A stretch of 64,000 nt of DNA from Bacteroidota bacterium (GTDB lineage Bacteria; Bacteroidota; Bacteroidia; Bacteroidales; UBA1715): the NCBI GenBank assembly GCA_009786075.1, contig WQTX01000001.1, forward strand, positions 1,592 to 65,591, read 5' to 3'. This document shows positions 27,140 through 63,987 of the stretch, one piece after another. How positions within the stretch are numbered: the stretch's first letter is position 1; each line of letters starts with the position of its first letter. The translations under genes were made by a program, and so were the position numbers. The notes beneath the pieces were generated by a model, which saw only the letters and a list, made by a program, of their open reading frames with translations, was not told where the DNA came from and ran no database searches.

Positions 27140-27143
27140 ATAA

Positions 27144-29521: not shown

Positions 29522-29526
29522 AATTA

Positions 29527-30450
29527 TTATTTTAACGGGAATATCCCATCGTTATTTATTGTTATTCCTTTTTTCATATCATTTACAGAGGCAAAACAAA
29601 CTATATCTTTATTTTCCCATGGTGCTTTTGTGCCATCATGCCGGTATTGAGAATTTTTGAAATTCATAAAATGAATGTACATAAAATTTCTATTGCAGTC
29701 TCTCGAATTTGTTACAACTCCATCTTTATAAAACCACGTATCGGGTTGTTGACTGTTTATAGTTCCGTCTATCCATGGTATTGTTGTAAAAGGAGTTGTG
29801 TATTGTTCAACCATATACAGTTTTCGAGTTTTAAGTCTTTTTACAAAAATAGTAAAAAATTTATTGATTTTGACATGAAATTTTTCGTTCAATTTATCAA
29901 AAAAAGTCATTGTAAAAGCATTGGTAATTCCGTGTTCATCAATTCCAACAAAATAGGGGTGTAATAATTTGTTTTTCCAATCATAAATGTTTTTATATAT
30001 GTTACGATTTTTTTTTGTATTCTTAAAAATTGCTAAATGCCCGGAAATTCGCACATTATGGGTTGAAAGGACTTCATATCTTGATAAAATTTCGTCGGTA
30101 TAGAAACTGCGAATATCACCAAAAAGTAAATCCATATCTGTCCAGCCATAGAAATCGGAATTTTTAATGTCTTCGTAATGTACAATTGGATAAAGCGGAC
30201 GCAAATCGCAAAGTTTGTAGGCATTAGCAGGTGAAAAGTTTAATTTTAAAACCTTACGAACATTATCAATGTATTCTTGAAAAGTCATTTTTTTGAAACG
30301 ACAATTTTCCATATTTTTATATTTTTCAAAATCGCAGTCGGTATAAAAAATAAAATTTATCGTGGAATTTCTGCGAACGGTTTCAAAATATAAATCAGAC
30401 CATTCGGGGAATTTGCCAAAGTAGGGTATTAGTATTGTTATTGACTGCAT
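29527..30450 (-). CDS. Uncharacterised protein, possible glycosyltransferase
   Basis: The N-terminus ITILIPYFGKFPEWSDLYFETV resembles poorly characterised glycan-locus proteins. There is no firm motif. Confidence 0.35.
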   Translation of the reverse strand: MQSITILIPYFGKFPEWSDLYFETVRRNSTINFIFYTDCDFEKYKNMENCRFKKMTFQEYIDNVRKVLKLNFSPANAYKLCDLRPLYPIVHYEDIKNSDFYGWTDMDLLFGDIRSFYTDEILSRYEVLSTHNVRISGHLAIFKNTKKNRNIYKNIYDWKNKLLHPYFVGIDEHGITNAFTMTFFDKLNEKFHVKINKFFTIFVKRLKTRKLYMVEQYTTPFTTIPWIDGTINSQQPDTWFYKDGVVTNSRDCNRNFMYIHFMNFKNSQYRHDGTKAPWENKDIVCFASVNDMKKGITINNDGIFPLK

Positions 30451-30477
30451 TTATTTTTTAAAATTTTAAATGTTTTT

Positions 30478-31386
30478 TTAGTTCGGGGTTTCTAGTTTCA
30501 AATATGACGCTGTCTCTAAAGTGCAAATTAAAAAATTATATGAATGATATCTGTTTTCATCAACTCGATAAAGATTATCCCTAAGCATAACTGTCATATC
30601 TTTTTCATTTATTTCATAATATAAGTAATTTTTATTGGCAAAGTATTTTTCGATTTTTTTACCTAATTCATTGTTTAATACTTCAATTATGAAATTTGGC
30701 AAAAATTCGGAAATAATATTTTCCATTCCTTCTAAAACTTCTGATTCATAAGATTCAACATCTATAGATATTAAATCAATTGTTTTTATATCGTGTTGGT
30801 CAATAAAATTTTTAAAAGTATGAGTAATTACTTCTCGAGTTGAAAAACTATTTTGTTGTGTTTCTTGTACAACAAATGAAGATGCTGCAGACGATTTTTC
30901 TGATTCGAAAAAAGTCTTTGACCCATTAGTGTTCGAAATCGCAAAATCAAAAACATTAATGTTAAAATTATTTATCTTCAAGTTTTTATTAATTAAATCG
31001 AACGCAAATTTTGAAGGCTCGAAAGAATAAACATTTGCTTCTGGATTAACAGCTTTAGCAACCATAGAATATAAACCAAAATTTGCACCAATGTCAAATA
31101 TATTTTGACTTTTTTTGCACAATTTTCCCCAAATAATTATCGAATTTGCATCCCAACATTTATCAATACCTTCATAATAGATTTCGAACATACCTTTGTC
31201 TATTCGATTAGAGTACAAGTAAAATGACGTGTCTAAAATGTTAACCTTAAATTTTCCATTAAACCAAAGGTCTTTTATATATTTTTCAAAACTAAGATTC
31301 ATTTGTTTTAATAAAAATATAATCTGTTTCTTAAATGGAATGTGTTGCCAAGTTTTAATAATTAAAGAATAAATTCTTGCTTTCAT
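30478..31386 (-). CDS. FkbM-family methyltransferase
   Basis: IFDIGANFGLYSMVA, followed by a NVYSFEPS-type segment. Confidence 0.7.
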   Translation of the reverse strand: MKARIYSLIIKTWQHIPFKKQIIFLLKQMNLSFEKYIKDLWFNGKFKVNILDTSFYLYSNRIDKGMFEIYYEGIDKCWDANSIIIWGKLCKKSQNIFDIGANFGLYSMVAKAVNPEANVYSFEPSKFAFDLINKNLKINNFNINVFDFAISNTNGSKTFFESEKSSAASSFVVQETQQNSFSTREVITHTFKNFIDQHDIKTIDLISIDVESYESEVLEGMENIISEFLPNFIIEVLNNELGKKIEKYFANKNYLYYEINEKDMTVMLRDNLYRVDENRYHSYNFLICTLETASYLKLETPN

Positions 31387-31394
31387 TTTATTAT

Positions 31395-32411
31395 TTATAT
31401 TTTAGTTTTTACAAGGGTTGTTTTAGGTGGGTCAAAAAGGTAGCCTAATTTAAAAATTCTGTATAAACAAAATTCTATAGACCTATTAAACAATGTGTTT
31501 TGTTTTTTTGTTTTTAAGTAAAGCCAGAATAATTTTTTGTATTTTAAATTTGATAAAGAATATATAGATTTTGCCTCTTCTTTTAAATTTGTTTTTATCA
31601 ACAAAATACATGTCCTAACTATGAATCTATTAATGGCAACATTTAGATTTTTATGAATTTGAACAGAATTTCTAACATTCAATATTGTTTCAATTAAAAC
31701 AGGAGTTCTGTTTTTTAGTTTGGTTTCTGAATAATAATCAGTTCCAATAGAAATATGACTTGGTGAACATCTGTAAAAAGTATTTTTGCTTATTTGTCCT
31801 TCGTCAATTTTGGCGTATTTTATTCCTTGTACCAATTTATTGACATGCATTTCCCAATCTTGAAAACTTTGGGCTTTCTCATTAAACCAATCATTACGAT
31901 TCAAATTTTTCATGTTCCATAATGGACCGGAAGTATGCCATGGCATATCCATATTAAAAAATCTTATCAAATCGTCTTCTTCTTTAATCAACTTATTCCA
32001 TTGATATTTGGGGTTTTTTATTGAATCAGAAAAAATAGCTGTAGGAAAAATTAAAGCGTCATAATTTTTATACTCAAAAGTTTTGTTAACTCTGTAATTT
32101 AAACAGTCTTGAGAAAGTATATCATCTGAATCTAAAAACATTAAAAAATCCCCTTTTGACTTTTCAACTCCTATGTTTCGACAATAGCTAGCTCCTTTCG
32201 GTTCACGGAGTCGTTTAAATATTTTTATTCGCTTATCTTTTGCTGCATATTCTTCTAAACTTTGCCAAGTATTATCGGTAGAACCATCATCAACAACAAT
32301 ACATTCCCAATTTTGGTATGTTTGCCACAAACAACTTCCCAATGCTTCTTTTACTAACTCTTGGCGATTGTAAACGGGTATTATTATTGAAATTAAAGGA
32401 TCTGTTACCAT
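31395..32411 (-). CDS. Glycosyltransferase family 2
   Basis: ISIIIPVYNRQELVKEALGSCLWQTYQNWECIVVDDGSTDNT and FLDSDD. Confidence 0.85.
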   Translation of the reverse strand: MVTDPLISIIIPVYNRQELVKEALGSCLWQTYQNWECIVVDDGSTDNTWQSLEEYAAKDKRIKIFKRLREPKGASYCRNIGVEKSKGDFLMFLDSDDILSQDCLNYRVNKTFEYKNYDALIFPTAIFSDSIKNPKYQWNKLIKEEDDLIRFFNMDMPWHTSGPLWNMKNLNRNDWFNEKAQSFQDWEMHVNKLVQGIKYAKIDEGQISKNTFYRCSPSHISIGTDYYSETKLKNRTPVLIETILNVRNSVQIHKNLNVAINRFIVRTCILLIKTNLKEEAKSIYSLSNLKYKKLFWLYLKTKKQNTLFNRSIEFCLYRIFKLGYLFDPPKTTLVKTKI

Positions 32412-34517: not shown

Positions 34518-35717
34518 TTAAATATTTCGATATTCTTTTTCTATAATTTTAAACAAATCTTCCTTGTTGGGCAGTTCCAAAAGATATTTCGATACAAAAA
34601 GTTGATTATCCATTGAGCCTTTGGCATATTCTATCAAAGTACTGTTTTTATTGGTTACGAGCAATATTCCAACAGGTGGATTATCGCCTTCGTGCATTTC
34701 GTGTCGCTTGTAATGTTCCAAATATGCATTTAATTGCCCTATATATTTGTGTTTAAATTCATCTATTTTGATTTCTATCAAAACGTGACAATGCAAAATC
34801 CGGTGGTAAAACACCAAATCAATAGGAAAATATTCGTCTTCTATCAAAATTCGTTTTTGCCGTGCTTCAAAACAAAATCCTGTGCCAAATTCAAGTAGAA
34901 AATTTTGCAAATTGTCCATTATAGCTTGCTCCAAATCGGATTCTAAAACCACATCTCGTGCTTTCAACCCCAAAAGTTCAAAAACAAAAGGCGATTTTAC
35001 AACGTCTTCAAAATTTTGTTTTTCTGCCGAATTTTGCACCCTTTCTATGAGTTTTTCCGGTTTTTTGCTTATGCCAGTGCGCTCATAAAATAGCGAATTT
35101 ATTTGTCGTCGCAATTCCCGCACACTCCACGTACCCTTTATACACTCAATTTCATAAAAAGCACGTTTCAAAGGTTCATCAATTTTAAGCAACTCCGAAA
35201 AATGTGAAAAAGAAAGATTTGTAAGTAATTTTATGGGGTTAACAAACGATTGATTTTCTGTGTTTTGCAATTCTTGGGACACTGTCCCAAACTTTTGTTG
35301 CAATTCAACAGACAGTGTCTGTTGAATTATATTATTTTCATTATCAAAACTTTGCAATTCAACAGACAGTGTCTGTTGAATTTGTTTCATGCCCCGAGCT
35401 TGCAATTCAACTGACACCGTCGGTTGAATTTGAGGATATGCTACATAAAAACTTCGACACAATCGCAACGAAGTAGGAACAACACCTTTTAACCCCTTTT
35501 CTGCAAGAGATTTATATAATTCATCTATCAAATTTTCCCCATACTTAGCCCTGTCTGCCCCATTTTGCTCATATTCCACAATATAAAAACCAAACAACCA
35601 ATTCCGCAACGTTAAACTCACATTAACAGCTTTCAAGGCATAGCCTTTCATTGCTTCGTGAGTTTGGTAAATTTGATTTACCAATTCATTGAAATTATGT
35701 TGTGTTAAAATCTTCAT
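34518..35717 (-). CDS. YhcG/DUF1016-family PD-(D/E)xK nuclease
   Basis: LSFSHFSELLKIDEPLKRAFYEIECIKGTWSVRELRRQINSLFYER, plus the nuclease core PIDLVFYH...VLIEIKIDEFK. Confidence 0.8.
   Translation of the reverse strand: MKILTQHNFNELVNQIYQTHEAMKGYALKAVNVSLTLRNWLFGFYIVEYEQNGADRAKYGENLIDELYKSLAEKGLKGVVPTSLRLCRSFYVAYPQIQPTVSVELQARGMKQIQQTLSVELQSFDNENNIIQQTLSVELQQKFGTVSQELQNTENQSFVNPIKLLTNLSFSHFSELLKIDEPLKRAFYEIECIKGTWSVRELRRQINSLFYERTGISKKPEKLIERVQNSAEKQNFEDVVKSPFVFELLGLKARDVVLESDLEQAIMDNLQNFLLEFGTGFCFEARQKRILIEDEYFPIDLVFYHRILHCHVLIEIKIDEFKHKYIGQLNAYLEHYKRHEMHEGDNPPVGILLVTNKNSTLIEYAKGSMDNQLFVSKYLLELPNKEDLFKIIEKEYRNI
35265..35429 (-). repeat. Four palindromic coding repeats inside the YhcG-like gene
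   Basis: TTGGGACACTGTCCCAA (35274-35290). TTGCAATTCAACAGACAGTGTCTGTTGAAT occurs at 35298-35327 and 35352-35381, with a variant at 35400-35429. They encode the (I)QQTLSVELQ units. Confidence 0.8.
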
Positions 35718-51300: not shown

Positions 51301-51644
51301 AATAGATTGATTATAAGATAGAAAGATAGTTTTTTACAAGTATGCAGTGACAAATGAGTAACAAAACATTCCCTTATTGAGAATTGTGGAGAATTTTGTA
51401 CTGCAAAGATAATCATTTTTCAATTAATACAACAACCGACTACACCAATTTTGAGTTTTCACAGAATAATATTAAAAGTAATAACAGCCTCACAGGAAAA
51501 GACACACAGTTTAATTTACAGCCTCTTGTTCCAATTTTGTAGTCTTTCAAAAACAAATAGGAATTTTCCCGTATCCACTAAAATCCATTCCGTATCAATC
51601 CAAAACCAACAGGATTTTTCAAGTATCAATTACCAAAAATCAAG

Positions 51645-51798
51645 TGTCTAATAGGAATTTTTAGCAGACACCTATTAGACACCAATAAGACACCTATTAT
51701 CTACCGAATAATTCCTATTTCCTCCGAATAATTTTGAATAAATCCTATTAGCTACCTGTTGGCTACCAATTAGACACCGAATGGACACTGATTAGCTA
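51645..51798. repeat. Phased 10-11-bp direct-repeat array (consensus CCTATTAGACA) plus one inverted copy
   Basis: Eleven consecutive units at 51671-51798, ten starting CC and the last starting CT: CCTATTAGACA CCAATAAGACA CCTATTATCTA CCGAATAATT CCTATTTCCT ... CCTATTAGCTA CCTGTTGGCTA CCAATTAGACA CCGAATGGACA CTGATTAGCTA. The inverted unit TGTCTAATAGG lies at 51645-51655. Confidence 0.75.
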
Positions 51799-51871
51799 CA
51801 AAAAAATCTTGTGTTAAGAAATACCCAAAATTTAAGCAAAAAATCCTATGTTATATGGTATTCTACGGATA

Positions 51872-54784
51872 TTACTTAATCAATATTAGCAATTCCTCCG
51901 CCAATTCTCTCGATTCCAACCGCATAATACTCTCCTCCGAACTCCCGTAACTCAAAAGGTTAATATTTCCATACCATACAAGACGATTGTCAATAAGAAC
52001 AAATTTTTGATGAATGTCGCTTTTTTGCACAACCGTAACAATCGATTGTAAATATTCAATACACTCTTTTATCCGCTCCGGTTCTTTATATGATTCCGGC
52101 GGACGAGTAACGATTGTGATTGAAACGCCCATTTTTAACGGCTCTTTCAACCATTCGAGGATTGTGTTTACTCGTTTTCTTTGCAAGAATGGACTGACAA
52201 TCAATATTTCTTTTTTCGCTTCGACAAAATCATTTTTCATTACTTCCGCAAAACTATCGGTGTCATAAATCAAATTGACTTTGTCGGGTTGGTTTTGAGC
52301 TGATAATGTTTTGTAACCTATCTGCGCATAACCGCTAAGGCGTTTGTGGTACATTCGTTCCAAAACCGGAACGTGAATATCCACATAATCGTAAATCATT
52401 ACATCTTTTTTATCGGGATATTCTCGGTGTAATCGTCCGGCATATTGAGCCAATGTACCTTTCCAAGCAATTGGCGAGGCGAGAAACAAGGTGTCTAAAC
52501 GTGGATAGTCAAAACCTTCGCCAACATATTTTCCTGTGGCAATGATAATGAGTTTTTCTTCTTTCGGAATGTTTGCTAACGATTCCATCATTTTGGTTTT
52601 TACTTTTGTAGAATCCGCTCCAACAAGCGTGATGATGTGTGCATCTATTTGATTTTTAAGTAATTCAAATAATCGCGAGACGTGTTCTTTACGTTGAGTG
52701 AGAATGATTGGTGTTCGGTTGTTTGTAACTGCTTCCGTAACATCATTGACAATCTGTTGGTTACGAAATTCGTCTTCGGCAAGAGTAGCGTAGATTTTAG
52801 TAATGTGCCAATCGGTTTCATTTTGCAAAAACGGCTTTTTAAATCCTGTAAAACACGGGATTAAATAGTGTTCAAAATTCCGTTTGCTTGCCTGCGATTT
52901 TGCATCAACAGAGTAGCGAATTGCGCCACACTGCATAAAGGTTATCGGGTGCTGTCCGTCTTGACGGGTGGGTGTTGCCGTCAAACCACAAACATAATGT
53001 GCATTGACCGCTCCAAGAACTTTTTCGTAATTGACAGACGAGGCGTGATGACATTCGTCCACAATTACCATTCCGTAATTTTTTACAATATCATCAACCT
53101 CATTATCACGGATTAAACTCTGAACGAGTGCAATATCTATGATGCCCGATGAAGTATTTTTGCCTGAACCGATTTGTCCAATAAGCGAACGAACCTTTTT
53201 TCTTCCTCGTCTTTTCTCCGCTTCGGGCAAGGTTTCGTTTATTTCGAGGAATTGTCCCAAAGATTTTTTCCATTGGTCAAATAATGTTTGTAAATGAACC
53301 AATATCAAAGTATTGCATTTTCTTTCGGCAATGAGCGATGCGCCGATAACGGTTTTACCGAAGGCGGTTGGAACGGAAAGTATACCGTTTTCGTGTTGGA
53401 GTAACGTATCGGTTGCCGATTGTTGTTCTTCGCGGAGCGTACCTTTAAAATTTACATCAATCTCTTTGCCTTTATTTCGCTTATCGTCAAATTCATAATT
53501 GACATTGGAATTTTCGAGCAAAGCAATAAGTGAAGAACGACAACCACGCGGAATGCCCAAATATTCAGCCGTTTCGTCCAAAGAATAAATAATTCGTGGA
53601 ATACCAAACGTGGACATTCGCATTTTCTGCGTTTTGTAAAATTGTGGATTTGAAAAGGCGGCAAGTCGTTTGATTTTGTTTAAAGCACATTGGCTGACAT
53701 CTTTTTTCAGAATATACAACCTGTTTGCTTCAATAATAATCAGTTTATTGGGAAAATCGTTGTTTTCAAGTTTCGTTTCCGGCTTTTTGTTTTCCCAAGG
53801 TTTTGGAACATCATCATCGTCTATTTCGATATTTCCAAGTTCTCCCAAACCATTGCCGATACATAATTTGTCGAGCCATTCATCTATTTCTGCCGAAGAA
53901 ATTTTCTTAATGGAAGATAAATACGCCCATTGGTCGGGGTAAGATTGGAAATTTTCGTCAATAAATTCACTATTTCCGTTTTTTCGTGCTCCACCTTGCA
54001 AAGGCAAAGCAATCAAATTGCCAAATCCGCCTTTTGGCATAAAATCCTGATTGGGGAACATTCGGTCGTAGGACGAAAATTTTATTTCGTGCCTAACGGA
54101 CATCGCTTTTGTCAGAATTGCATTCCCGAATTTTCGTGCGGACATTGCCAAAATCGGCTCGCTAAAAAACAACCAAGCGTGTGCGCCGTTTCCGGAACGA
54201 GAACGCTCAATTGCCACCGGAATATTCAACTCTTTACAAACAGAACGAAAGGCGGAAATGTCTTTTTGCCATTGTTCTTCATCAAAATCAATAGCAAGAA
54301 ACAAGCAAGTTTCGTCTGACAAGAGAGCGTAAACCCCGACAATTCCTGTTCCGTTTTCGTCTTTATTTCGTAAATGGAAATTGATAGTTTCCGCTGTCAA
54401 AGGCAAAAATTCTCGATTGGTACAATCTTTACATTTGGTGTTTGTTCTGTTGCAAAGTCCTCTAACCCACTCGTTTTTACAGGCAGGAATATAATAACTG
54501 CTTTCGTGCTTTCTGCTGTAACAGCGTTTGGCGTAAACATCTGTTCTTCCACGAAACAACGACATAAACAATTCTATTTTTTCTTCGGGTGTGCTGTGTT
54601 TGGTTATAGACGATTCCGTTTCCTGTATGGTATTTTCTTCTTCAACGGGAACGATATTTTGCTTTTTGGCTATTTCTTCAACCGACAACCCCAATATTTT
54701 CCGTAATTTCTCATTTTCTGCACGAAGAAAATAAACTTCCGATTCAAGTTCTTCGATTCGTTTGTGGAGAGTTGTTTTGGGCAT
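51872..54784 (-). CDS. AEP/PrimPol - SF2 (DEAD/DEAH, ResIII-like) helicase - HKD/PLD nuclease fusion protein
   Basis: AEP motifs LAIDFDE, SGNGAHAWLFF and GFGNLIALPLQG. Helicase motifs PTAFGKTVIG, VIVDECHH, GLTATPTR and QYAGRLHR. C-terminal HQKFVLIDNRLVWYGNINL (HxK). N-terminal coiled coil. Confidence 0.8.
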   Translation of the reverse strand: MPKTTLHKRIEELESEVYFLRAENEKLRKILGLSVEEIAKKQNIVPVEEENTIQETESSITKHSTPEEKIELFMSLFRGRTDVYAKRCYSRKHESSYYIPACKNEWVRGLCNRTNTKCKDCTNREFLPLTAETINFHLRNKDENGTGIVGVYALLSDETCLFLAIDFDEEQWQKDISAFRSVCKELNIPVAIERSRSGNGAHAWLFFSEPILAMSARKFGNAILTKAMSVRHEIKFSSYDRMFPNQDFMPKGGFGNLIALPLQGGARKNGNSEFIDENFQSYPDQWAYLSSIKKISSAEIDEWLDKLCIGNGLGELGNIEIDDDDVPKPWENKKPETKLENNDFPNKLIIIEANRLYILKKDVSQCALNKIKRLAAFSNPQFYKTQKMRMSTFGIPRIIYSLDETAEYLGIPRGCRSSLIALLENSNVNYEFDDKRNKGKEIDVNFKGTLREEQQSATDTLLQHENGILSVPTAFGKTVIGASLIAERKCNTLILVHLQTLFDQWKKSLGQFLEINETLPEAEKRRGRKKVRSLIGQIGSGKNTSSGIIDIALVQSLIRDNEVDDIVKNYGMVIVDECHHASSVNYEKVLGAVNAHYVCGLTATPTRQDGQHPITFMQCGAIRYSVDAKSQASKRNFEHYLIPCFTGFKKPFLQNETDWHITKIYATLAEDEFRNQQIVNDVTEAVTNNRTPIILTQRKEHVSRLFELLKNQIDAHIITLVGADSTKVKTKMMESLANIPKEEKLIIIATGKYVGEGFDYPRLDTLFLASPIAWKGTLAQYAGRLHREYPDKKDVMIYDYVDIHVPVLERMYHKRLSGYAQIGYKTLSAQNQPDKVNLIYDTDSFAEVMKNDFVEAKKEILIVSPFLQRKRVNTILEWLKEPLKMGVSITIVTRPPESYKEPERIKECIEYLQSIVTVVQKSDIHQKFVLIDNRLVWYGNINLLSYGSSEESIMRLESRELAEELLILIK

Positions 54785-54810: not shown

Positions 54811-54818
54811 CAAAGATA
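54811..54818 (-). promoter_or_regulatory. -7 box (TATCTTTG on the minus strand) for the AEP-helicase-PLD gene
   Basis: The plus strand reads CAAAGATA 27 nt upstream of the start codon at 54784. Confidence 0.45.
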
Positions 54819-54854
54819 GCGATTTTTCTTTTTATGTTTTGTATCGTTAAAGAA

Positions 54855-54897
54855 GAAACCCCAAAGTCAAATAATTTTTATTCGATTTTGGGGTTTC
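54855..54897 (-). terminator. Terminator of the LRR surface protein gene
   Basis: An 11-bp perfect stem GAAACCCCAAA/TTTGGGGTTTC, 38 nt past the stop at 54935. It isolates the AEP gene as its own transcription unit. Confidence 0.7.
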
Positions 54898-54934
54898 CAC
54901 AAGTTCCCTTGTAAAGAAGATTTAGAGGAATTTT

Positions 54935-57900
54935 CTATTTTTTCACTACACTTATTCGTTTACCATTTATTTGTAAAAAATACACACCATTGGCGTAATT
55001 CGATAAATCAACTTGTGTACCGAATGTTGTAATCAGCAATGCGCCAAATGAATTATATACTTTGATTTCGCTTGGCTCGCTTATGTTTACTATGCCGGTG
55101 GTTGGATTAGGGTAAATTATAAGTGAACTTTCATCAATGGTTTCAATATCGGTTGTTTTCTCTTTGAAAGTTACTACAATTTTGTGATTTTCTGTAACAG
55201 GTGGAAAAGTATAATATCCGTCCAATTGAGCTATTGAATTTATAAGATAATCATTATCAACTTTTATGTAATTTATTTCATAACCATCATTGGGCGTAAA
55301 ATAAAATGTTTGACTTTTTCCTTCATTAACACGAACGTTTCCGCTCGGTTCTATGCTACCGTTTTCGTCTGACGATGCAACAATTGTGTAATAATTTGCC
55401 GGATTATTAATTAGTTTGAAAGTTACTGATATTTCATAATCCTTTTCAACTTTCGGGAAAGTATAACGTCCGTTTGCTTTGGCAGTTGGGTTTATAACAC
55501 CATCAATTTTCACTTGGTCTATTTCATAGCCATCATTTGGCGTAAAAATAAATTCTGGACTACTACCTTTATTAACAGGAACATTTCCGCTTGGTTCTAT
55601 GCTACCGTTTGGGTCTATATTGCCATTTTCGCCTGCCGTAGCAATAATGCTGTAAGTTGTAATTCCGCCTTCTGCGGGAGTTATAAAATCGCCTGTGAAA
55701 ACGGTTAGCATATAGCCGTCGACATTGTAAGGCGTGAGCGAATAATAATATCGAGTATTTGCCGTCAAATTCGGAACAGTGTAGAATAATGTCGATTTAA
55801 GGAAAGGATTGCCGTCAGCATCTAAATTCAATTCTGCAACTTTATTTATATGATTTTCATCGCTGTAAATATTTAATTCGTAATTAATTGCATTGTTAAT
55901 TTTGGGAAAAGTAACATTGGCGGAATTTGGCGTAGGAACAACCTGTACGGCACACTGATAATTTGTAAATACTTTCCAATAAAGTCTTGTTTGGTAATCG
56001 GAAAGATAATTGCAATTAATATATACAGGAATATTTGGGGAAACATTGTTAAAAGTAGAGGATTGTAGCGTTGGCGGTGTAGTGGCGTTGCAAATTATTT
56101 GACTTAATCCTGTGCAACCTGAAAAAGCATAGTATGGAATTGTAGTTACTTTATTTCCTATCGTTATAGTTTCAAGTGTCGTCATTCCCGAAAAGGAATC
56201 ATCGCCACATTGCCCTAAATTTCTACCTAAATGTAAATTTTTTACAGGACAATTTCCAAAAACACCATTATCGCCAGCAGTGCAATAAAGGTATAAAATT
56301 TCAGTACCATCTTGTATATTAATATTTTGTAGTTGTGTGCAATTGTCAAATGCTCGCCAACCAATTACAGAGATTGTAGAAGGAATAATTAATTGTGTTA
56401 AACTACTACAACCTCTAAACGCATCACTGCCGATTGAAGTAATTGAACTTGGGAAATTAATTGTTTGTAAACTTGAACAACCATAAAAGCAAGAAGAAGG
56501 AATTTCAGTAATTAAATCTCCTTCAAATGTTACGGAAGTTAATCTTGTACAATTTTTGAATGGTTGATAATAAGTTGGCAATGTTGTAACTAAACTGCCT
56601 ATTGTTACAGTTTCAAGTGTTGTCATTCCTGAAAACGAACCTGCACCGCATTGTCCTAAATTTCTCCCTAAATGCAAATTTTTCACGGGGCAATTTCCAA
56701 AAACACCATTGTCGCCACTAACACAATAAAGATATAAAATTTCGCTACCATCCTGTATATTAACATTCTGCAATTGAGTACAGTTGTCAAATGCACGCGA
56801 ACCAATTTCAGTGATTGTAGAAGGAATTGTTAATTGTGTTAAACTATTACAACTTCTGAAAGCATTATTGCCGATTGAAGTAATTGAACTTGGAAAATTA
56901 ATTGCTTGCAAACTCGAACAACCATAAAAACAAGAAGAAGGAATTTCGGCAATTAAATTTCCTTCAAATGCTACAGAAGCTAATCCTGTACAATTTCTAA
57001 ATGAATAAGTTGGCAATGTTGTAACTAAACTGCCAATGGTTAAGATTTTAAGTGTTGTTATCCCTGAAAAGGAGTCATCTCCGCATTGTCCTAAATTTCT
57101 TCCTAAATATAAACTTTTCACGGGACAATTACCAAAAACGCCATTGTCGCCACTAACACAATAAAGATATAAAATTTCGCTACCATCCTGTATGTTAACA
57201 TTCTGCAATTGAGTACAGTTGTCAAATGCACGCGAACCAATTGTTGAGACAGTAGAAGATATAGTTACATTGTTCAAATTAGTATAATCTCTAAAAGCAT
57301 TATTTGGAATAGAAGTTACTCCACTACGAATAATAAGTGTTCTTATTTCGGAGCGCCTATCTGTATAATCATTTGAAAAAGTCGGTTTATATTTATCAAT
57401 TTCTGACTGACATAAAGCACCGCTACCACTAATAATAAGTGTGCCACCAATTAATGTGGCAGTAACAGAACAACTTGGTTTTCCATTTCCCCAAGAAATA
57501 TTAGATGCTGCACTATATAAATTGTCTGCATCTCCTAATAAATTGTATATCGAAATACCACAACGTATTCCATAGTAAAAAGTCAGAGGCAATGTCATAG
57601 GTCCGGCTGCGGCTGAAAGTAACGCATTACCACAATGAATAAAAGTACTTGTTATTGAAAGTGTCATCTTAGCTCCATACCAAAGCACCTTAAATTCATC
57701 AGGCGCAAAGTTATCTATAATAATATCTCTAAGGAATTTTTCTCCAAATCCCAACCCGAAACTTGGAAGAGTTGGATTGTCAAACATACCATTCACTAAG
57801 CGACTTAAATTCTCAGGGTTATAAATAGTTTTTTCAACACATTCAGCTAACGTGCTCAAAGCAAAATCCCACGTGTATTCAACAAAACTACTACCCAAAG

Positions 57901-58855
57901 AAGCAAAATCCATTTCAACTCCTTCTATGCTGTTATATACGCCATTGTATGAAAGTGCTGCAACATTACAAGTATTTCCTGCGTAGCCGTCAAAAATAAA
58001 AGTTACGCTATCAGAAAAAATTCTATCAGGCAACCCGTTATTATTGTATTCAACTATCATTTTGATTGCATCTTTTTCATCATCATAAATAGTAAGTCGC
58101 TTGGGTAAATTCTGATTATTTTCTTGATATTCAAAATAATAGACAGTGCCATATAAGTCCATAATAACAGCATCTAAGGTATCGCCCAAATCTTCTTCAA
58201 TAAGAAGATATTGTGGCATGGATTTAAAATTACGCCACACATTTTCTGATTTATAGGCTGTTATTGCCTCTTTGGGAGTAGCAAGATAGATAGACGGAAC
58301 TGTTATGCCACTAAAAACATTAAGGTTATTTATATTTTGTGGCGTAGTTGCCATATTATAAACGGCAGTCAAAGCGGCACAATTTCCAAATGCTTCTTTT
58401 TCTATGGTATCAACACTTTGGGGAATTGTAATAGTAGGCAAAGAAGTACAATTATAAAATGATTGTTCTCCAATTATAGTAACAGTATTGGGAATTGTTG
58501 TTGCTTGCAAGTTTCTACAATTCTTAAACGCATAATTTCCAATATTCGTTACGCCGTCTTCTATAACAACGGTTTCTATGGTATTAAGGTTAGTAATGCG
58601 CCAAGGGGCAACACCGTCAATCGCAGTATCCCAAAAATCAGACATATCTCCACTACCATTAATATACAGAATTTTGCCATCTATATATGCTCTAACATCG
58701 TTTTCCCCTCTGGTATTTTCATTGTCAGAAATAACCCAAGGGCTAATTTTTGTTCCGTTTCCTTCCCACGCCATTACATTGTTTGTAAAGGCAAGCAAAA
58801 CAAATAGCATTGCTATTGTTAAAAGATTTTTTGTTTTTGTAAATTTCTTATTCAT
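54935..58855 (-). CDS. BspA-like leucine-rich-repeat surface protein with Ig-like repeats and a T9SS type-A C-terminal domain
   Basis: Repeated IGxxAFxxCxxLxxIxIPxSVTxI LRR units, two GENGxIxPxG...FTPNDGYEI domains, and the C-terminus IYPNPTTGIVNISEPSEIKVYNSFGALL...GVYFLQINGK. Confidence 0.85.
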   Translation of the reverse strand: MNKKFTKTKNLLTIAMLFVLLAFTNNVMAWEGNGTKISPWVISDNENTRGENDVRAYIDGKILYINGSGDMSDFWDTAIDGVAPWRITNLNTIETVVIEDGVTNIGNYAFKNCRNLQATTIPNTVTIIGEQSFYNCTSLPTITIPQSVDTIEKEAFGNCAALTAVYNMATTPQNINNLNVFSGITVPSIYLATPKEAITAYKSENVWRNFKSMPQYLLIEEDLGDTLDAVIMDLYGTVYYFEYQENNQNLPKRLTIYDDEKDAIKMIVEYNNNGLPDRIFSDSVTFIFDGYAGNTCNVAALSYNGVYNSIEGVEMDFASLGSSFVEYTWDFALSTLAECVEKTIYNPENLSRLVNGMFDNPTLPSFGLGFGEKFLRDIIIDNFAPDEFKVLWYGAKMTLSITSTFIHCGNALLSAAAGPMTLPLTFYYGIRCGISIYNLLGDADNLYSAASNISWGNGKPSCSVTATLIGGTLIISGSGALCQSEIDKYKPTFSNDYTDRRSEIRTLIIRSGVTSIPNNAFRDYTNLNNVTISSTVSTIGSRAFDNCTQLQNVNIQDGSEILYLYCVSGDNGVFGNCPVKSLYLGRNLGQCGDDSFSGITTLKILTIGSLVTTLPTYSFRNCTGLASVAFEGNLIAEIPSSCFYGCSSLQAINFPSSITSIGNNAFRSCNSLTQLTIPSTITEIGSRAFDNCTQLQNVNIQDGSEILYLYCVSGDNGVFGNCPVKNLHLGRNLGQCGAGSFSGMTTLETVTIGSLVTTLPTYYQPFKNCTRLTSVTFEGDLITEIPSSCFYGCSSLQTINFPSSITSIGSDAFRGCSSLTQLIIPSTISVIGWRAFDNCTQLQNINIQDGTEILYLYCTAGDNGVFGNCPVKNLHLGRNLGQCGDDSFSGMTTLETITIGNKVTTIPYYAFSGCTGLSQIICNATTPPTLQSSTFNNVSPNIPVYINCNYLSDYQTRLYWKVFTNYQCAVQVVPTPNSANVTFPKINNAINYELNIYSDENHINKVAELNLDADGNPFLKSTLFYTVPNLTANTRYYYSLTPYNVDGYMLTVFTGDFITPAEGGITTYSIIATAGENGNIDPNGSIEPSGNVPVNKGSSPEFIFTPNDGYEIDQVKIDGVINPTAKANGRYTFPKVEKDYEISVTFKLINNPANYYTIVASSDENGSIEPSGNVRVNEGKSQTFYFTPNDGYEINYIKVDNDYLINSIAQLDGYYTFPPVTENHKIVVTFKEKTTDIETIDESSLIIYPNPTTGIVNISEPSEIKVYNSFGALLITTFGTQVDLSNYANGVYFLQINGKRISVVKK
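56100..57300 (-). repeat. Near-identical tandem duplications (about 435-441 bp, ~2.7 copies) inside the LRR gene; boundaries approximate
   Basis: GCAATTGAGTACAGTTGTCAAATGCACGCGAACCAAT recurs at 56770 and 57205, with a diverged third copy near 56330. The protein unit IGSRAFDNCTQLQNVNIQDGSEILYLYC... repeats. Confidence 0.8.
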
Positions 58856-59228: not shown

Positions 59229-60866
59229 ATGACAGAACAAGAATTACATAAAATCTTATCAGACGCTATTGCACTTCCGGCAGAAATTGAGATTGTTGAA
59301 TTTAAAGAGGCAAAAGAAAGCTACGACTTCGATAAACTCGGCAAATACTTTTCAGCGTTAAGCAACGAAGCCAATTTGAAAGGAAGGTCGTGTGCGTGGC
59401 TTATTTTTGGAGTGAACAATAAACATCAAATCGTCGGTAGCCATTATCGTACCAACCGCAAAAAGTTGGACAGCCTGAAAAAAGAAATTGGCGACAAAAC
59501 CACTCACAATATTTCATTTATAGAAATCTACGAACTCACTACGCCCGAAGGTCGTGTTGTGATGTTTCAAATACCTGCTGCACCACAGGGTATTCCTGTT
59601 GCATTTGAGGGGTATTATCACGGTCGTCTTAATGAAAGTTTGACGGCACTGAATATTGAAAAAATTGAACGAATACGCAATCAGGCAATTGATAGGGATT
59701 GGTCTCGAAAAATTGTTCCCGATGCCACTTTTGACGATTTGGACAAGGAGGCGATTTTGAAAGCGCGGGAGCAATTCAAGTTACGGAATCCGTCTTTAGT
59801 GAACGATGTAGATAATTGGGACGATGTAACTTTTCTGAACAAAGCCAAAGTAACGCTCAACGGAAAAATTACCAATACCGCTATTCTGTTGCTTGGTAAA
59901 GACGAGGCAAGTTCATTGATTTCTCCTGCAATTGCGCAAATAACGTGGGCATTGAAAGAGGAGCCGGGCGATTTTGAACATTTTCATACACCATTTATTC
60001 TAACTGTTGAAAAGGTACTTGCTTGTATTCGCAATTTGAAATTCAGTTATATGGTTGACGATAATTCGCTGTTTCCCAAAGAAGTAACTCGTTACGACAA
60101 GTGGGTAATGCGAGAATTGTTGCACAACTGCGTGGCACACACCGATTACGGTAAAAGCCGTCGTATGATTGTGTTGGAGTACAAAGACAGGTTGATTTTT
60201 CAAAATGCGGGCAGTTTTATTCCCAATTCGGTAGAAGAAGTTATTCGGCACAATAGTCCGCAGGATTATTATCGCAATCCGTTTTTGACCAAAGCAATGG
60301 TTAATCTGAATATGATAGAAACGGTTGGAAACGGAATACAAAAAATCTTTGCCATTCAAAGAGAACGGTTATTTCCAATGCCGACTTACGATATTTCAGA
60401 CGAAATGCACACCAAAGTTACCGTTTTCGGCAAACTTTTGAATGAAAATTACACGTATCAATTATTTTCCCACCCCGAATTACCGATGGAAGACGTGATT
60501 GCTTTGGACAGGGTGCAAAAGAAACAGGAGATTTCCGAAGAGGCAGTAAGTCGTTTGCGTTCATTGAAAATGGTAAAAGGGCGCACAAGTTCACTTGAAA
60601 TTGTTGGAACAGAAAAACCGAATAGTTTGAGCAATAAAGATTACAAACAATTGATATTGAATTTGCTTGCGGAAAAAGGCTCTGCAACGAGAGAAGAAAT
60701 AGAAAAAATGCTTCTGCCGCTTTTGCCACAGGGGTTGCCCGCAGCAAAACAGCAAAAGAAAATATCAAATCTTATTACAGAGTTATCGCAAAAAGAAAGA
60801 AAAATAAAAAATATATCTACATCGGATAAATATGCGGAATGGACTTTGTATATTGAAAAAGATTAG
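59229..60866 (+). CDS. Schlafen/AlbA_2-domain protein with a HATPase_c_4-like middle domain and a C-terminal wHTH
   Basis: N-terminal PAEIEIVEFKEAKESYDFDKLGKYFSALSNEANLKG..AWLIFGV. Middle VMRELLHNCVAHTDYGKSRRMIVLEYKDRLIFQNAGSF. C-terminal LILNLLAEKGSATREEIEKML. Confidence 0.8.
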   Translation: MTEQELHKILSDAIALPAEIEIVEFKEAKESYDFDKLGKYFSALSNEANLKGRSCAWLIFGVNNKHQIVGSHYRTNRKKLDSLKKEIGDKTTHNISFIEIYELTTPEGRVVMFQIPAAPQGIPVAFEGYYHGRLNESLTALNIEKIERIRNQAIDRDWSRKIVPDATFDDLDKEAILKAREQFKLRNPSLVNDVDNWDDVTFLNKAKVTLNGKITNTAILLLGKDEASSLISPAIAQITWALKEEPGDFEHFHTPFILTVEKVLACIRNLKFSYMVDDNSLFPKEVTRYDKWVMRELLHNCVAHTDYGKSRRMIVLEYKDRLIFQNAGSFIPNSVEEVIRHNSPQDYYRNPFLTKAMVNLNMIETVGNGIQKIFAIQRERLFPMPTYDISDEMHTKVTVFGKLLNENYTYQLFSHPELPMEDVIALDRVQKKQEISEEAVSRLRSLKMVKGRTSSLEIVGTEKPNSLSNKDYKQLILNLLAEKGSATREEIEKMLLPLLPQGLPAAKQQKKISNLITELSQKERKIKNISTSDKYAEWTLYIEKD

Positions 60867-61073
60867 TTGTAAAAACAACGAAAAAAGTAGTAAAAATCCA
60901 CAAAACAGCTCATATTCAAATATTTAACATTTTTAAATATTAGTTGTAAAAAGTTGTAAAAAATTAGCAATAAAAATCGAGTTTTTAGCAATAAGAATAA
61001 ATTAAACGACTGATATTGTGTTGTTTGTAATTCTAATAGTTTAGCAATAAAACTGAAAAAATAGTAGTAAAAC
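60864..61073. repeat. Eight dispersed TAG-NNN-TAAAA(A/C) words in the AlbA_2/helicase spacer
   Basis: TAGTTGTAAAAA (60864, 60941), GTTGTAAAAAA (60953), AGTAGTAAAAA (60886), TTAGCAATAAAAA (60964), TTAGCAATAAGAA (60985), TTAGCAATAAAAC (61041), TAGTAGTAAAAC (61062). Confidence 0.6.
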
Positions 61074-61109
61074 AATACCCATAGCCTTTGCGTACCTCAT
61101 TTTTAGATT

Positions 61110-62891
61110 ATGGAACTTACCCAAGAACAATATAACATCATCAACTCGACAGGCAACATCAAAATAAATGCGGTTGCAGGTTCGGGGAAGACTACGACCA
61201 TAATTGAATACGCAAAAGCACGACCAAAAACTGCCAAAATTCTTTATCTTGCTTTCAACAAGTCCGTAAAATTGGAAGCGATAAAGAAATTTGCAGACAA
61301 AGGGCTTGATAATGTGAAAGTTGAAACTGCTCATTCGCTTGCGTATAAGCACATTGTTTTTAAGCACGATTACAAAATTCGAGCACAAGGTTACAAAACC
61401 GGCGAAATTGCGGAATTACTTGGTTTACAAGGAGGTGAAGAAAAATACACCGAATATATTGTAGCAAATCATATCAATAAATTTCTTGCATACTTTTGTA
61501 ACAGCGACAAACAAAAAGTGCAAGAATTAAACTACCTTGATACGATTTCTGACAGTAAAGCCAGAGCATTCGTTTCGACTTCTTACAATTATATAGAGAC
61601 ACAAACTCGTTTACTTTTAGCGAAAATGGATAAGGGCGAAATTGATGTTACGCATGATTTTTATCTCAAAAAATTTCAACTTTCAAACCCAACACTTCAT
61701 TACGATTACATTCTCTTTGACGAGGGACAAGACGCATCGCCCGCTATGCTTGATATTTTCTTTAAACAAAAAGCAACAAAAGTAATTGTCGGCGACACGC
61801 ACCAACAAATTTATGGTTGGCGTTATGCGGTAAATTCCCTTGAAAAAGCCGATTATAAAACTTATAACCTTTCAACAAGTTTTCGTTTCAGTCAAGACAT
61901 CGCAAATTTGGCAATGCAAATGTTAACATTGAAAAAATATATTCAAGATGAACTGCAAATTTCTATCACAGGAAAAGGCAATTCCGATGAAATTGTATCA
62001 AAAGCGGTAATTGCAAGAACTAATCTTGGATTGCTTGTAAAAGCCATTGAATATGTAACCGAGAAGAAAAACGTTAAGAATATTTACTTTGAAGGCAACA
62101 TCAATTCGTACACTTACGCTGATGACGGTGCTTCGCTTTATGACGTACTCAATTTGTACAACGGGAAACACCACCTTATCAAAGACAAGTTAATCAAGCA
62201 AATGAAAAATCTTGAAGAACTTGAAGATTACATTGATAAAACCGAAGATGTACAACTTGGAATGTTAGTTGAAATCGTGAAAGAATATGGCAACAAAATT
62301 CCTGATATTATCAAAAAAATCAAGGAAAAGCACGTTGAAAACGACAAAAAAGAAGAGGCGGAAATGATTTTTACAACAGTTCATCGCTGTAAAGGAATGG
62401 AATATGACACTATTCAAATCGTCAATGATTTCATTACAGAGGAAACTTTGGAAAATCTTGATGAAGACAAAAACAAAATTTTGAATGTTGATAAAATAAA
62501 CGAAGAAATCAATCTTTTGTATGTTGCTGTTACACGAACAAAAAACAGCGTTCATATTCCCTCAACTCTTATACCAAAAGACTTTTTGTCATCTTCGTCC
62601 AAAATTCACGTTATGAAAACGTTGAGCAAAGAAGAAAAAGAAGAACTTGCTGTACAGAAACAAAAAATAGAAAAGAAAGACGTTGCAAATGGCAAAGTAT
62701 ATTCCGTTGAAACAGTAAGAGAAAAACACAAAGATGCTTACAAACCTTGGACTGAGGAACTTGACGAAGAACTAACAATAATGTATTGTGAAGGTATCAA
62801 TGTCAGAGATATGGCGAAACATTTCGGGCGGACAAATGGGGCAATTAGGTCAAGAATTAAAAAATTAGAATTAGAAGAATTGTATGGTTAA
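61110..62891 (+). CDS. UvrD/Rep-like SF1 helicase with a C-terminal Myb/SANT-like HTH tail
   Basis: Walker A AVAGSGKTTTIIEYA, Walker B ILFDEGQD, VIARTN, TVHRCKGMEYDTIQIV, LLYVAVTRTKNSVHI. Tail PWTEELDEELTIMYCEGINVRDMAKHFGRTNGAIRSRIKKL. Confidence 0.85.
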   Translation: MELTQEQYNIINSTGNIKINAVAGSGKTTTIIEYAKARPKTAKILYLAFNKSVKLEAIKKFADKGLDNVKVETAHSLAYKHIVFKHDYKIRAQGYKTGEIAELLGLQGGEEKYTEYIVANHINKFLAYFCNSDKQKVQELNYLDTISDSKARAFVSTSYNYIETQTRLLLAKMDKGEIDVTHDFYLKKFQLSNPTLHYDYILFDEGQDASPAMLDIFFKQKATKVIVGDTHQQIYGWRYAVNSLEKADYKTYNLSTSFRFSQDIANLAMQMLTLKKYIQDELQISITGKGNSDEIVSKAVIARTNLGLLVKAIEYVTEKKNVKNIYFEGNINSYTYADDGASLYDVLNLYNGKHHLIKDKLIKQMKNLEELEDYIDKTEDVQLGMLVEIVKEYGNKIPDIIKKIKEKHVENDKKEEAEMIFTTVHRCKGMEYDTIQIVNDFITEETLENLDEDKNKILNVDKINEEINLLYVAVTRTKNSVHIPSTLIPKDFLSSSSKIHVMKTLSKEEKEELAVQKQKIEKKDVANGKVYSVETVREKHKDAYKPWTEELDEELTIMYCEGINVRDMAKHFGRTNGAIRSRIKKLELEELYG

Positions 62892-62973
62892 ATAGGTTTA
62901 CCGTAAGCATCCGATATTCAGGAGGTGTAATTGATTATAAAATTCAAAAAATGGGAACACCCGTAAAAACGAA

Positions 62974-63987
62974 TTATTTACTCACAACTATATTGTGTGT
63001 TACAATTTCAAATACTTTCCACCAATAGAAGAAAGCCTCTATATTGCTCATTTTCAATTTATTGAGCTTTGTTGGTAGCAGATTTTCTATTATTGCGTTT
63101 TGCAACTCTGAAATGTTGTTTTTGTCAAAATGCTCTACTTTTGTCAAATTGTTTGCTATCAAGGTGGAAAGATACGCAACTTTTGAAGCGTTAATAATTG
63201 CTGTATCAAGCATATATCTTTCGCTGTGAATAAAACTTTGTATGCGTTTTATGCCGTCTTGCAAAAGTTTAAAATTCTCATTATCAATTTGTCCTTGCAA
63301 ACAAACGCAAAGTGAAGTTTGAAAAATATCGTTTAAAACTTGCTGTATATTGTTGAGATTGAGATTTCTATACGCCAATTCTACAACAGCAAATTTTCGG
63401 AATGTTTCAGTTGTAACGCTCAAATCATTTGTAACATCGAACAATGAGGCAATGTCGTAAAGTTGTTTTACAATTTCCATTGAGCACATTTTATTACCTT
63501 TGTAGTAGGGTATTCCTGTTGTGTTTGGTGCAAATGCTGTGAGTTTGTCGCCCAATAAGTCGGCAACGCTCGGTACGTTTACAAAAACTTTTTCGCCGTC
63601 AGTTTTCAAAAGTCGGCTCTCAATTGGCAACTGCACCACATTATTATAATGGATTTCTTCAAAAAGCACATCAAGCAAAATACAATCAGTTTCTGTGTTA
63701 GTGTTGTAAGTTACTTGATAGTAGAATTTTGCGTGGCTTTTTGGAATATTGCGAGTGGTTTTCCGCTCAACCAATTTTATTTCGTTAAAGCCGTATAGTT
63801 CAGCGTTTTTGCTCAAATATTTTACAATATCGGTTTCGGGCGGACAAATAATGTCAATGTCGATAGACAAACGTTTTGCACTATCTAAATGCAACATCAG
63901 CGCAGTTCCGCCTTTAAACACAAACGGACAACCCGATAATGCCAACGATTCCAACAGCGAAAATGCACGAATTGTCTTTTCCAACAT
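62974..63987 (-). CDS. AbiEii/AbiGii-family nucleotidyltransferase toxin
   Basis: N-terminal FVFKGGTALMLHLDSAKRLSIDIDII (NTase G-x-x and DxD region) and a typical ~330-aa length. Confidence 0.75.
   Translation of the reverse strand: MLEKTIRAFSLLESLALSGCPFVFKGGTALMLHLDSAKRLSIDIDIICPPETDIVKYLSKNAELYGFNEIKLVERKTTRNIPKSHAKFYYQVTYNTNTETDCILLDVLFEEIHYNNVVQLPIESRLLKTDGEKVFVNVPSVADLLGDKLTAFAPNTTGIPYYKGNKMCSMEIVKQLYDIASLFDVTNDLSVTTETFRKFAVVELAYRNLNLNNIQQVLNDIFQTSLCVCLQGQIDNENFKLLQDGIKRIQSFIHSERYMLDTAIINASKVAYLSTLIANNLTKVEHFDKNNISELQNAIIENLLPTKLNKLKMSNIEAFFYWWKVFEIVTHNIVVSK

Follow-up and report, generated by a model that had tools for sequence, protein, structure and literature searches.

The familiar settings of archaeo-eukaryotic primase (AEP) primase-polymerases are replication, repair and CRISPR adaptation. 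The TOTE conflict systems take their name from TPR, OB, TBP and Effector (bioRxiv 10.1101/2025.09.15.676423, citing Aravind, Iyer & Burroughs 2022). Among the CRISPR-associated primase-polymerases (CAPP), one CAPP_A type, 'CAPP-Helicase', consists of a PrimPol with a helicase after it and adjoins cas1-cas2 (Zabrady et al. 2021, PMC8211822). Here we describe a gene from a Bacteroidota bacterium (Bacteroidales, UBA1715; assembly GCA_009786075.1, contig WQTX01000001.1) whose product of 970 aa joins an AEP PrimPol, an XPB-like helicase of superfamily 2 (SF2) and a phospholipase D (PLD)-like domain with a single HKD motif. The analysed stretch, 64,000 nucleotides long (positions 1,592 to 65,591 of the contig), is called the window in the following, and all coordinates refer to it.

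The window gene belongs to the AEP-TOTE family, works without fixed partners and moves horizontally; the role which we prefer for it, with a probability of roughly 0.55, is in the conflict between the host, or a mobile element residing in it, and invading DNA. Judged from the translation, all catalytic residues of the three enzymatic modules are intact in the window copy and are carried by one chain. By its sequence the gene is an added member of a computationally defined family that is catalogued as a conflict-system component: PF22548 is named 'TOTE conflict system, Archaeo-Eukaryotic Primase domain' in Pfam, and NCBI names homologs accordingly. The initial annotation of this DNA, made from the sequence alone, had mentioned similar AEP-helicase architectures from comparative-genomics surveys; the family is a recognised one, with PF22548 and the NCBI name, and a CAPP-Helicase type is described.

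Domains of the 970-aa protein

Translation confirmed the open reading frame (ORF), which starts with ATG, as first described and with all motifs listed for it; PTAFGKTVIG, DECH, TATPTR and QYAGRLHR of the helicase were each found. Four Pfam domains (AEP-TOTE, ResIII, Helicase_C and PLDc_2) scored over their curated cut-offs, and searches with hidden Markov models supported all three domain assignments, i. e. AEP, helicase and PLD. The contig is metagenomic and Bacteroidales-like, and the closest homologs of the ORF come from Bacteroidia, Dysgonomonas and Prevotellaceae. The features are collected in Table 1.

The AEP domain matched PF22548 from end to end (profile positions 1-229 of 230) with E=1.8e-98 and 329.2 bits at a cut-off of 27. 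The PADLOC model 'PrimPol, CAS-associated' matched aa 47-378 (2.4e-90), and the NCBIfam model PrimPol_Msp reached 86 bits, which is under its cut-off of 200. The domain also aligned with MpCAPP of Marinitoga (crystal-structure sequence 7nqd) with E=4e-11, and in this alignment the DxD, GxH and FPxQ...GGhGNLIxhPL segments all correspond. The first two motifs lie in LAIDFDE...SGNGAHAWLFF at aa 163-207. Among 110-150 homologs, D166, D168, H202 and D240 are invariant or near-invariant. A complete catalytic triad preceded by a Cys-rich segment had been proposed for this region. The DxD and SGxGxH motifs and the cysteines stood up to the comparison; GFGNLIALPLQG, however, is a conserved AEP segment and not the third catalytic motif, and the third acidic residue is likely the invariant D240. 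The Cys-rich segment, CKNEWVRGLCNRTNTKCKDC (aa 102-121), is a probable zinc-binding element. Of the close homologs 109/109 kept all four cysteines, as did 144 of the 145-147 representatives taken at 50% identity.

The claim of a full SF2 helicase core held as well. ResIII was found at aa 449-607 with 80.6 bits (the DEAD profile also matched) and Helicase_C at aa 687-787 with 23.9 bits at a cut-off of 23.5. The region of aa ~340-815 matched XPB/Rad25, UvsW and RadD best, both by sequence and by fold. The AF2 model has a pLDDT of 77, and Foldseek matches went down to E 1e-16. In a viral structure library the protein matched helicases only. The segment between AEP and helicase had no Pfam match. 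Whole-chain Foldseek alignments extended over ~500 columns to the 440-aa archaeal XPB, and judging from this alignment length only, the linker (aa ~340-445) is probably the counterpart of the N-terminal (DRD-like) domain of XPB.

At the C-terminus, the HxK(x)4D motif reported initially is intact, and model and profiles alike show that the region truly has the PLD fold, with a single HKD motif as in the Nuc/Zucchini/NucT type. PLDc_2 was found at aa 854-965 with 33.1 bits (cut-off 27). The AF2 model of the domain has a pLDDT of 87, and its top Foldseek matches were NucT, Zucchini and Nuc with E=7e-8 to 1e-7 and TM ~0.6. When the domain was compared with the PDB as a single sequence, nothing meaningful was found; a profile of 17 sequences matched PLD3/4 as well as Zucchini, Nuc and NucT, and the HxK...D...GSxN columns were in register. 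The motif of the window copy, H925-x-K927-x4-D932-x6-G939-N940-x-N942, is held by HQKFVLIDNRLVWYGNIN (aa 925-942); N940 stands where the consensus HxK(x)4D(x)6GSxN has Ser.

In Nuc and Zucchini, the single-HKD domains of two chains dimerise into one active site. A dimer would also fit the N-terminus of the window protein, where a coiled coil had been annotated. The AF2 model predicts a long helix at aa 3-30, its heptad leucines L6/L13/L20/L27 are conserved among homologs, and there is a weak match to bZIP_1. We infer that this zipper-like helix may serve dimerisation.

Upstream of the ORF, 3' of a gene for a leucine-rich repeat (LRR) protein, lies a hairpin of -24.3 kcal/mol (z = -7.3; 0/200 shuffles fold as well) which is followed by a U-rich tract. 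This terminator-like element would insulate the ORF from the LRR gene. The box TATCTTTG before the ORF matches the Bacteroidota -7 promoter consensus. However, TAnnTTTG is a common pattern in this DNA (the window has 126 matches vs ~104 expected by chance), so that taken alone the box is weak evidence for a promoter. Because of the terminator hairpin upstream and the box before the ATG, the ORF looks monocistronic in the window, as the initial annotation had put it.

Table 1. Features of the window gene and of its flanking intergenic DNA (position 1 is the first nucleotide of the window)
Feature	Position	Strand	Basis or remark
Whole ORF: coiled coil - probable Zn(Cys4)/AEP PrimPol - probable XPB-type N-terminal domain + SF2 helicase - single-HKD PLD	51872..54784	-	translation, Pfam, AF2
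N-terminal helix, aa 3-30, leucine-zipper-like	54695..54778	-	AF2 helix, conserved heptad leucines, weak bZIP_1 match
AEP (PrimPol-type) catalytic domain, aa 68-302, including DxD (D166, D168), SGxGxH (H202) and D240 (likely third acidic residue)	53879..54583	-	PF22548, 7nqd alignment
Cys4 cluster C102/C111/C118/C121, within the N-terminal AEP part	54422..54481	-	translation, homolog alignment
Conserved linker domain between AEP and helicase, aa 340-445	53450..53767	-	family conservation, structured in AF2
SF2 helicase core, aa 446-815: Walker A GKT 476-478, DECH 576-579, TAT 602-604, QxxGRxxR 780-787	52340..53449	-	Pfam, fold
PLD-like domain, aa 835-970, one HKD motif	51875..52282	-	Pfam, profile, AF2/Foldseek
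TATCTTTG, fits the -7 promoter consensus of Bacteroidota (TAnnTTTG)	54811..54818	-	27 nt 5' of ATG
Terminator-like hairpin + U-tract, 3' of the upstream LRR gene	54854..54898	-	folding energy vs shuffles
Repeat arrays	51659-51712 and 51743-51807, inverted copy 51643-51655		intergenic 51640-51810, downstream of ORF

Conservation and genomic contexts of the family

Used alone as the query, the AEP region gave 1177 clusters (50% identity, E<1e-30). The family thus has a size of at least 1177 such clusters, and it ranges over Bacteroidota, Firmicutes, candidate phyla and Proteobacteria. Architectures were counted in 58 representatives of at least 750 aa, and homologs at 53-85% identity formed a close set. 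All 58 representatives join the AEP to a C-terminal NTPase module, which is nearly always an SF2 helicase; in P0158 a TraG-like P-loop takes its place after the AEP. Thirty-three representatives have the order AEP-linker-helicase-PLD (~940-1000 aa), and in 25 (43%) the PLD is missing (AEP-linker-helicase, mostly ~780-830 aa). In P0156 the PLD is replaced by a C-terminal DUF559/Vsr-like endonuclease. The C-terminal nuclease slot is swappable and holds a PLD, a DUF559/Vsr-like domain or none. P0252 and P0015 carry N-terminal PNP_UDP and Metallophos fusions, and N-terminal GNAT or FMN_red domains are also seen rarely in the family. Some of these rare variants may be gene-calling fusions.

The modules differ in how well their residues are kept. 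In the close set and in the representatives at 50% identity, the four cysteines, DxD, SGxGxH and D240 of the AEP are near-invariant, and so are the Walker A Lys, DECH, TAT and QxxGRxxR of the helicase. The HKD motif has decayed. At its His position, 67 of 115 close homologs have His and 43 have Tyr, and the Tyr usually goes with loss of the distal Asn. The full H-K-D-S-N set was found in 59 of the 115 and in only 6 of the 33 PLD-bearing representatives at 50% identity. Thus His and Lys of the motif are lost in most lineages; the window copy is intact. Since AEP and helicase residues are near-invariant and the HKD motif is not, PrimPol and helicase are the conserved machine of the family. Correspondingly, the PLD nuclease is an optional, exchangeable or dispensable add-on and not part of the conserved core, because its motif is mostly lost and 43% of the full-length representatives have no such domain. 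With the residues lost in most lineages and the domain absent from 25/58 representatives, the HKD nuclease is not the conserved effector of the family. The window protein (H-K-D-N-N) belongs to the minority whose nuclease is plausibly active, as its motif residues suggest.

The asymmetry has practical consequences. An invariant polymerase and helicase next to a decaying nuclease motif tell which mutants matter, and they argue against a view of these proteins as ordinary helicase-nuclease restriction enzymes.

The contexts of the family were studied in ~103 non-redundant loci from genomes and metagenomes, in which 231 neighbours at positions ±1 and ±2 were scanned with Pfam. Neither BLAST clustering nor the Pfam counts revealed a conserved partner gene, and no family occurred in more than ~11 loci. 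The initial description as a single-gene system is in agreement with these ~100 loci without a conserved partner. Contexts vary even between homologs of 76-85% identity, which indicates horizontal mobility. When the neighbourhoods of the homologs were checked, they were rich, in raw counts, in abortive infection (Abi) and toxin-antitoxin (TA), restriction, helicase, integrase and transposase genes.

Three kinds of genes recur upstream. AAA_14/DUF4143 ATPases account for 11 neighbours, 5 of them directly upstream and co-oriented, and AlbA_2/HATPase_c_4 genes for 10; a separate seed search gave 7 of the latter kind directly upstream and co-oriented. AbiEii was found in 7 upstream and 2 downstream neighbours; in 6 loci it lies directly upstream and co-oriented with gaps of 4-82 nt, and the subtypes differ. 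AbiEi/AbiEii pairs stand directly upstream at loci L007, L015, L016, L024, L051 and L089, which belong to different lineages; L029 is a further locus with these genes. Taken together, AbiEi/AbiEii, AAA_14-DUF4143 and AlbA_2-HATPase_c_4 genes recur in up to a third of the loci, and each of them joins a nucleotide-binding to a winged-helix domain. They could act as alternative sensors or regulators, or just share the same islands. By Makarova et al. 2011, COG1373 (AAA_14/DUF4143) and COG2865 (AlbA_2-HTH) are reported to be among the genes enriched in defence islands.

The remaining neighbours are more scattered. Integrases, resolvases and IS66 transposases were found several times, and Abi_2, AbiH, HipBA and AAA_21 occasionally. 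Occasional neighbours are also a ZorD/DpdE-like SNF2 helicase and a DpdF/PsyrT-like RecQ helicase, which starts at the base after the stop codon. A type IIG restriction-modification (RM) enzyme occurred in one context.

In the window itself, the gene is flanked by genes for a BspA-type LRR protein and for an SprB/CHU_C adhesin, both of which are cargo of type IX secretion. The nearest defence-like genes start 4.4 kb upstream, namely AlbA_2/HATPase_c_4, a GajB-like UvrD helicase and AbiEii. The initial placement inside a conflict-gene island thus holds only loosely. The defence-like cluster lies at 59229-63987 and beyond (21-1811 of locus L001). Its UvrD gene has no obvious GajA, its AbiEii matched the PADLOC model with 1.4e-125, and an AbiEi-like DUF6577 gene follows just past the edge of the window. 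No mobile-element hallmark was found within 10 kb of the window gene, and no repeat of at least 10 nt common to the two flanking intergenic regions marks an insertion. The Rfam scan of the window yielded one tRNA and nothing else.

Downstream of the stop codon, at a distance of 70-230 nt, there are two runs of repeats with an 11-bp period (unit ~GTCTAATWGGT). Five of the six matches to the motif in the window cluster here, and 0/100 shuffles reach six. By their sequence the arrays resemble iterons or arm sites. As a feature of the family, an origin linked to the gene was dismissed, since 28 other loci lack the motif. A scan of repeat density in ~110 loci showed the window as an outlier with 6 copies, the others having mostly 2-3, and the downstream regions of L012 and L015 had nothing like the 11-bp array. 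In viral contigs the motif had 4 matches, which by a rough estimate is about chance. The array may instead have to do with the adhesin gene, which follows after another 700 nt. A second TATCTTTG box is found at 51404-51411 on the minus strand, ~460 nt 5' of the start of the adhesin gene at 50940, and may be the promoter of this gene or of an unannotated small transcript.

Further observations concern other parts of the window. Within the BspA-type LRR gene (54935-58855), a 441-bp tandem repeat at 56163-57304 (2.6 copies, 85% matches) is an internal expansion of the LRR modules. The region 24000-32000 has a GC content of 27-31% vs ~36-44% elsewhere and consists of a long series of ORFs that are all read from the minus strand; possibly this is a biosynthetic cluster obtained by horizontal transfer, e. 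g. for a surface glycan. A 48-nt tandem repeat at 35298-35432 (2.7 copies) has the internal palindrome CAACAGACAGTGTCTGTTG.

Possible roles of the gene

The interpretation as a conflict gene draws on several kinds of evidence. The family is distributed patchily, its neighbourhoods vary and abound in Abi, TA, RM and helicase genes, its nucleases are swappable and it is absent from phages; this is the usual picture for genes of defence or of conflict between elements. In Pfam and at NCBI its label is that of a conflict system, and the PADLOC model for a CRISPR-associated PrimPol matches. In E. coli islands, the position of the homolog seems analogous to that of the anti-phage cargo abpBA and rnlAB. 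Other points weigh against it. The catalytic residues of the HKD motif are lost in most lineages, and therefore nuclease-based restriction is not the general mechanism of the family. AEP plus helicase is a classic replication module of mobile elements, and PLD-less relatives occur on such elements, conjugative plasmids among them. Both immediate neighbours of the window gene are surface-protein genes and not defence genes, and the neighbour counts are raw and without a genome-wide background comparison. In the literature searched, neither experimental work on an AEP-XPB-helicase(-PLD) protein nor a phenotype came to light. Thus the immune-gene interpretation given initially is supported by the domains, the monocistronic appearance, the lack of a partner and the Abi- and RM-rich loci of the homologs; it is weakened by the poor conservation of the nuclease and by the local flanks.

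How such a protein could act is inferred here from the points which alone are established directly, i. e. the identity of the domains, the integrity of their residues and the autonomy of the gene. The protein would dimerise via the N-terminal zipper and the single-HKD domain. The XPB-like motor with its N-terminal domain would load on foreign or replicating DNA and open it or translocate along it. On the exposed single strand, the PrimPol could make primers or DNA, and this synthesis would either disturb the replication of the invader or yield a nucleic-acid product. In copies with an intact HKD motif, such as that of the window, the PLD nuclease might then cut the DNA.

A bolder interpretation, which we regard as tentative, makes the PrimPol-XPB helicase pair and not the nuclease the conserved effector of the family. 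The pair would open foreign or replicating DNA and synthesise nucleic acid, while the PLD would serve mainly in dimerisation or DNA binding and be catalytic in some lineages, and the recurrent upstream genes would be alternative regulators or sensors. Such synthesis-based immunity would be analogous in spirit to that by defence reverse transcriptases but built on an AEP.

Among the rival explanations, a role in the replication or establishment of mobile elements survives best, and it is possible though doubtful. The protein would prime and unwind the DNA of the element (in complementary-strand synthesis after conjugation, in replication through a Tn3 cointegrate or in that of an excised island), and the window copy would be a stranded remnant or cargo. 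A tblastn search of 72,556 plasmids gave 70 records with at least 80% query coverage, mostly large alphaproteobacterial plasmids. On plasmids of Ochrobactrum and Bradyrhizobium, the homolog stands beside DUF736, DUF1738 (ArdC-like), ParB-like and recombinase-trio genes, and in S. meliloti it follows a TniQ gene near VapBC. On plasmids of E. albertii and Pantoea, a Tn3-family transposon has a PLD-less homolog between its resolvase gene tnpR and its transposase gene tnpA, the gaps being 22-29 nt; E. albertii pESA134_1 (L039 8373-14310) carries two inverted copies, and the Pantoea plasmid is pDSJ06 (L038). This homolog inside a Tn3 transposition module raises the question whether it serves the transposon or defends it. 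Integrases flank several chromosomal copies, and the 11-bp iteron-like array just downstream of the window gene would fit an origin. However, this array is peculiar to the window locus and no conserved origin was found. The plasmids which carry homologs have their own Rep genes, and the window gene is without mobile-element hallmarks within 10 kb and without flanking repeats. Its helicase is of a monomeric SF2 type (XPB/UvsW-like), unlike the hexameric SF3, SF4 or MCM helicases of replicative primase-helicases, and fused nucleases suit attack better than replication. The AEP part was found by tblastn in none of 50,697 phage records, in which only the helicase part had matches; a phage origin of the gene was rejected, as phage records and the viral structure library both match the helicase only. 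The initial annotation had named a Rep function on plasmids or integrative and conjugative elements as the finding that would speak against it. This applies in part: PLD-less relatives do occur on plasmids, Tn3-type transposons and islands, but not as the Rep protein of the replicon.

The E. coli copies bear on both the conflict interpretation and this rival. A PLD-less homolog of 786 aa, which shares 41% identity with the window protein over aa 16-828 of the latter, is present in 524/5426 complete E. coli genomes (~10%); one example is WP_000233452.1 of strain 2013C-3342. In E. coli strains H51, H52, H54 and H55 it is co-oriented and lies directly after genes of the YfjI family (DUF3987) and of the YagK/YfjJ ('inovirus Gp2') type, which fits a replication module. 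An integrase is visible in 3 of the 4 regions examined, as in CP4-57-like islands. In CP4-57 of E. coli K-12, the equivalent position is taken by abpB/abpA ('anti-bacteriophage protein') and rnlAB. Between the two islands, the YfjJ-type proteins have only a short motif in common, and the 'same slot' is therefore best read as a positional analogy. AbpB (YfjK) was considered as a homolog and rejected, the similarity being limited to the Walker A region. One copy, in E. coli LSN03-016011/A (L044 10005-12365), reads VAFDE, with Ala at the first Asp of the AEP DxD; the other E. coli copies read VDFDE. By its sequence this copy is a candidate for a naturally occurring allele that has lost catalysis.

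A role in host DNA repair or damage tolerance is improbable. The protein would join repriming by the PrimPol, remodelling of forks or bubbles by the XPB/RadD-like helicase and end processing by the PLD nuclease, in analogy to XPB-Bax1 or to repair by other PrimPols. In structure and sequence the helicase comes closest to the repair helicases XPB, RadD and UvsW, and another bacterial PrimPol derived from a mobile element has repair activities in E. coli (PMC11724360). But the distribution is patchy and varies between strains (~10% of E. coli genomes), and contexts that differ among homologs of 76-85% identity, mobile regions and swappable nuclease domains do not suit a host repair gene. Similarly improbable is that the gene is a component of a multi-gene TOTE or CRISPR adaptation (CAPP-helicase) module with partners elsewhere in the genome, for although the Pfam name, the PADLOC match (2.4e-90) and the CAPP-Helicase class next to cas1-cas2 (PMC8211822) point there, no TPR, OB, TBP or cas gene lies within 10 kb and no CRISPR array in the 64-kb window, these genes are not among the recurrent neighbours of the ~100 loci, and PrimPol_Msp remains at 86 bits vs its cut-off of 200.

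With the conflict interpretation as the preferred one, the question becomes what a PrimPol does in a conflict system. The conservation pattern, the upstream genes and the copies in E. coli and Tn3 make it testable, and since about one in ten complete E. coli genomes, including islands of enterohaemorrhagic strains, has a member of the family, it can be tested in a model host.

Comparison with known systems

The window AEP matches PF22548 from end to end, and homologs at 41-85% identity with the same AEP-helicase layout carry the NCBI name of the TOTE family. In contrast to TOTE systems, there is neither a TPR-S1/CSD (OB-fold) nor a TBP gene within 10 kb on either side of the window gene, and neither TPR, S1/CSD nor TBP is among the 25 commonest Pfam families of the 231 neighbours. 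With MpCAPP (7nqd/7nqf) the window AEP shares the catalytic motifs, and the order of PrimPol and helicase is that of CAPP-Helicase, the type to which the family of the window protein probably corresponds. It differs in that no CRISPR-like array was found in the 64-kb window and no cas gene within 10 kb of the ORF, that the NCBIfam CAPP cut-off is not reached, and that the protein has no TPR or PriCT domain but a C-terminal PLD. The window gene is therefore a stand-alone form without the partners which define TOTE and CAPP.

The coupling of an AEP primase-polymerase to a helicase on mobile DNA is also known from pRN1 ORF904, P4 alpha, D5-like proteins and AgaPP + DUF3987 (PMC11724360). Their helicases are of the SF3 type (D5/DUF3987) and stand beside an origin, whereas that of the window protein is XPB-like SF2 and has no conserved origin-like repeats next to it.

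For the C-terminal part, PADLOC gave partial matches to the PLD parts of MkoC (977-1114 of 1136), MkoB and DrmC of Mokosh and DISARM, and for the helicase part to type IV enzymes such as SauUSI. None of these PLD defence systems has an AEP, and the domain order of SauUSI is different. The other defining genes (MkoA; DrmA, DrmB) were not found near the window gene, and unlike in PLD effectors the HKD residues are mostly degenerate across its family. Nuc, NucT and Zucchini/MitoPLD have the same fold and the same HxK(x)4D(x)6G-x-x-N motif as the PLD of the window copy.

The best sequence and fold matches of aa ~340-815 are found in XPB/Rad25-Bax1 and UvsW/RadD. XPB, too, pairs with a nuclease partner, Bax1; the window helicase has no Bax1-type nuclease and is instead fused to a primase-polymerase and a PLD domain.

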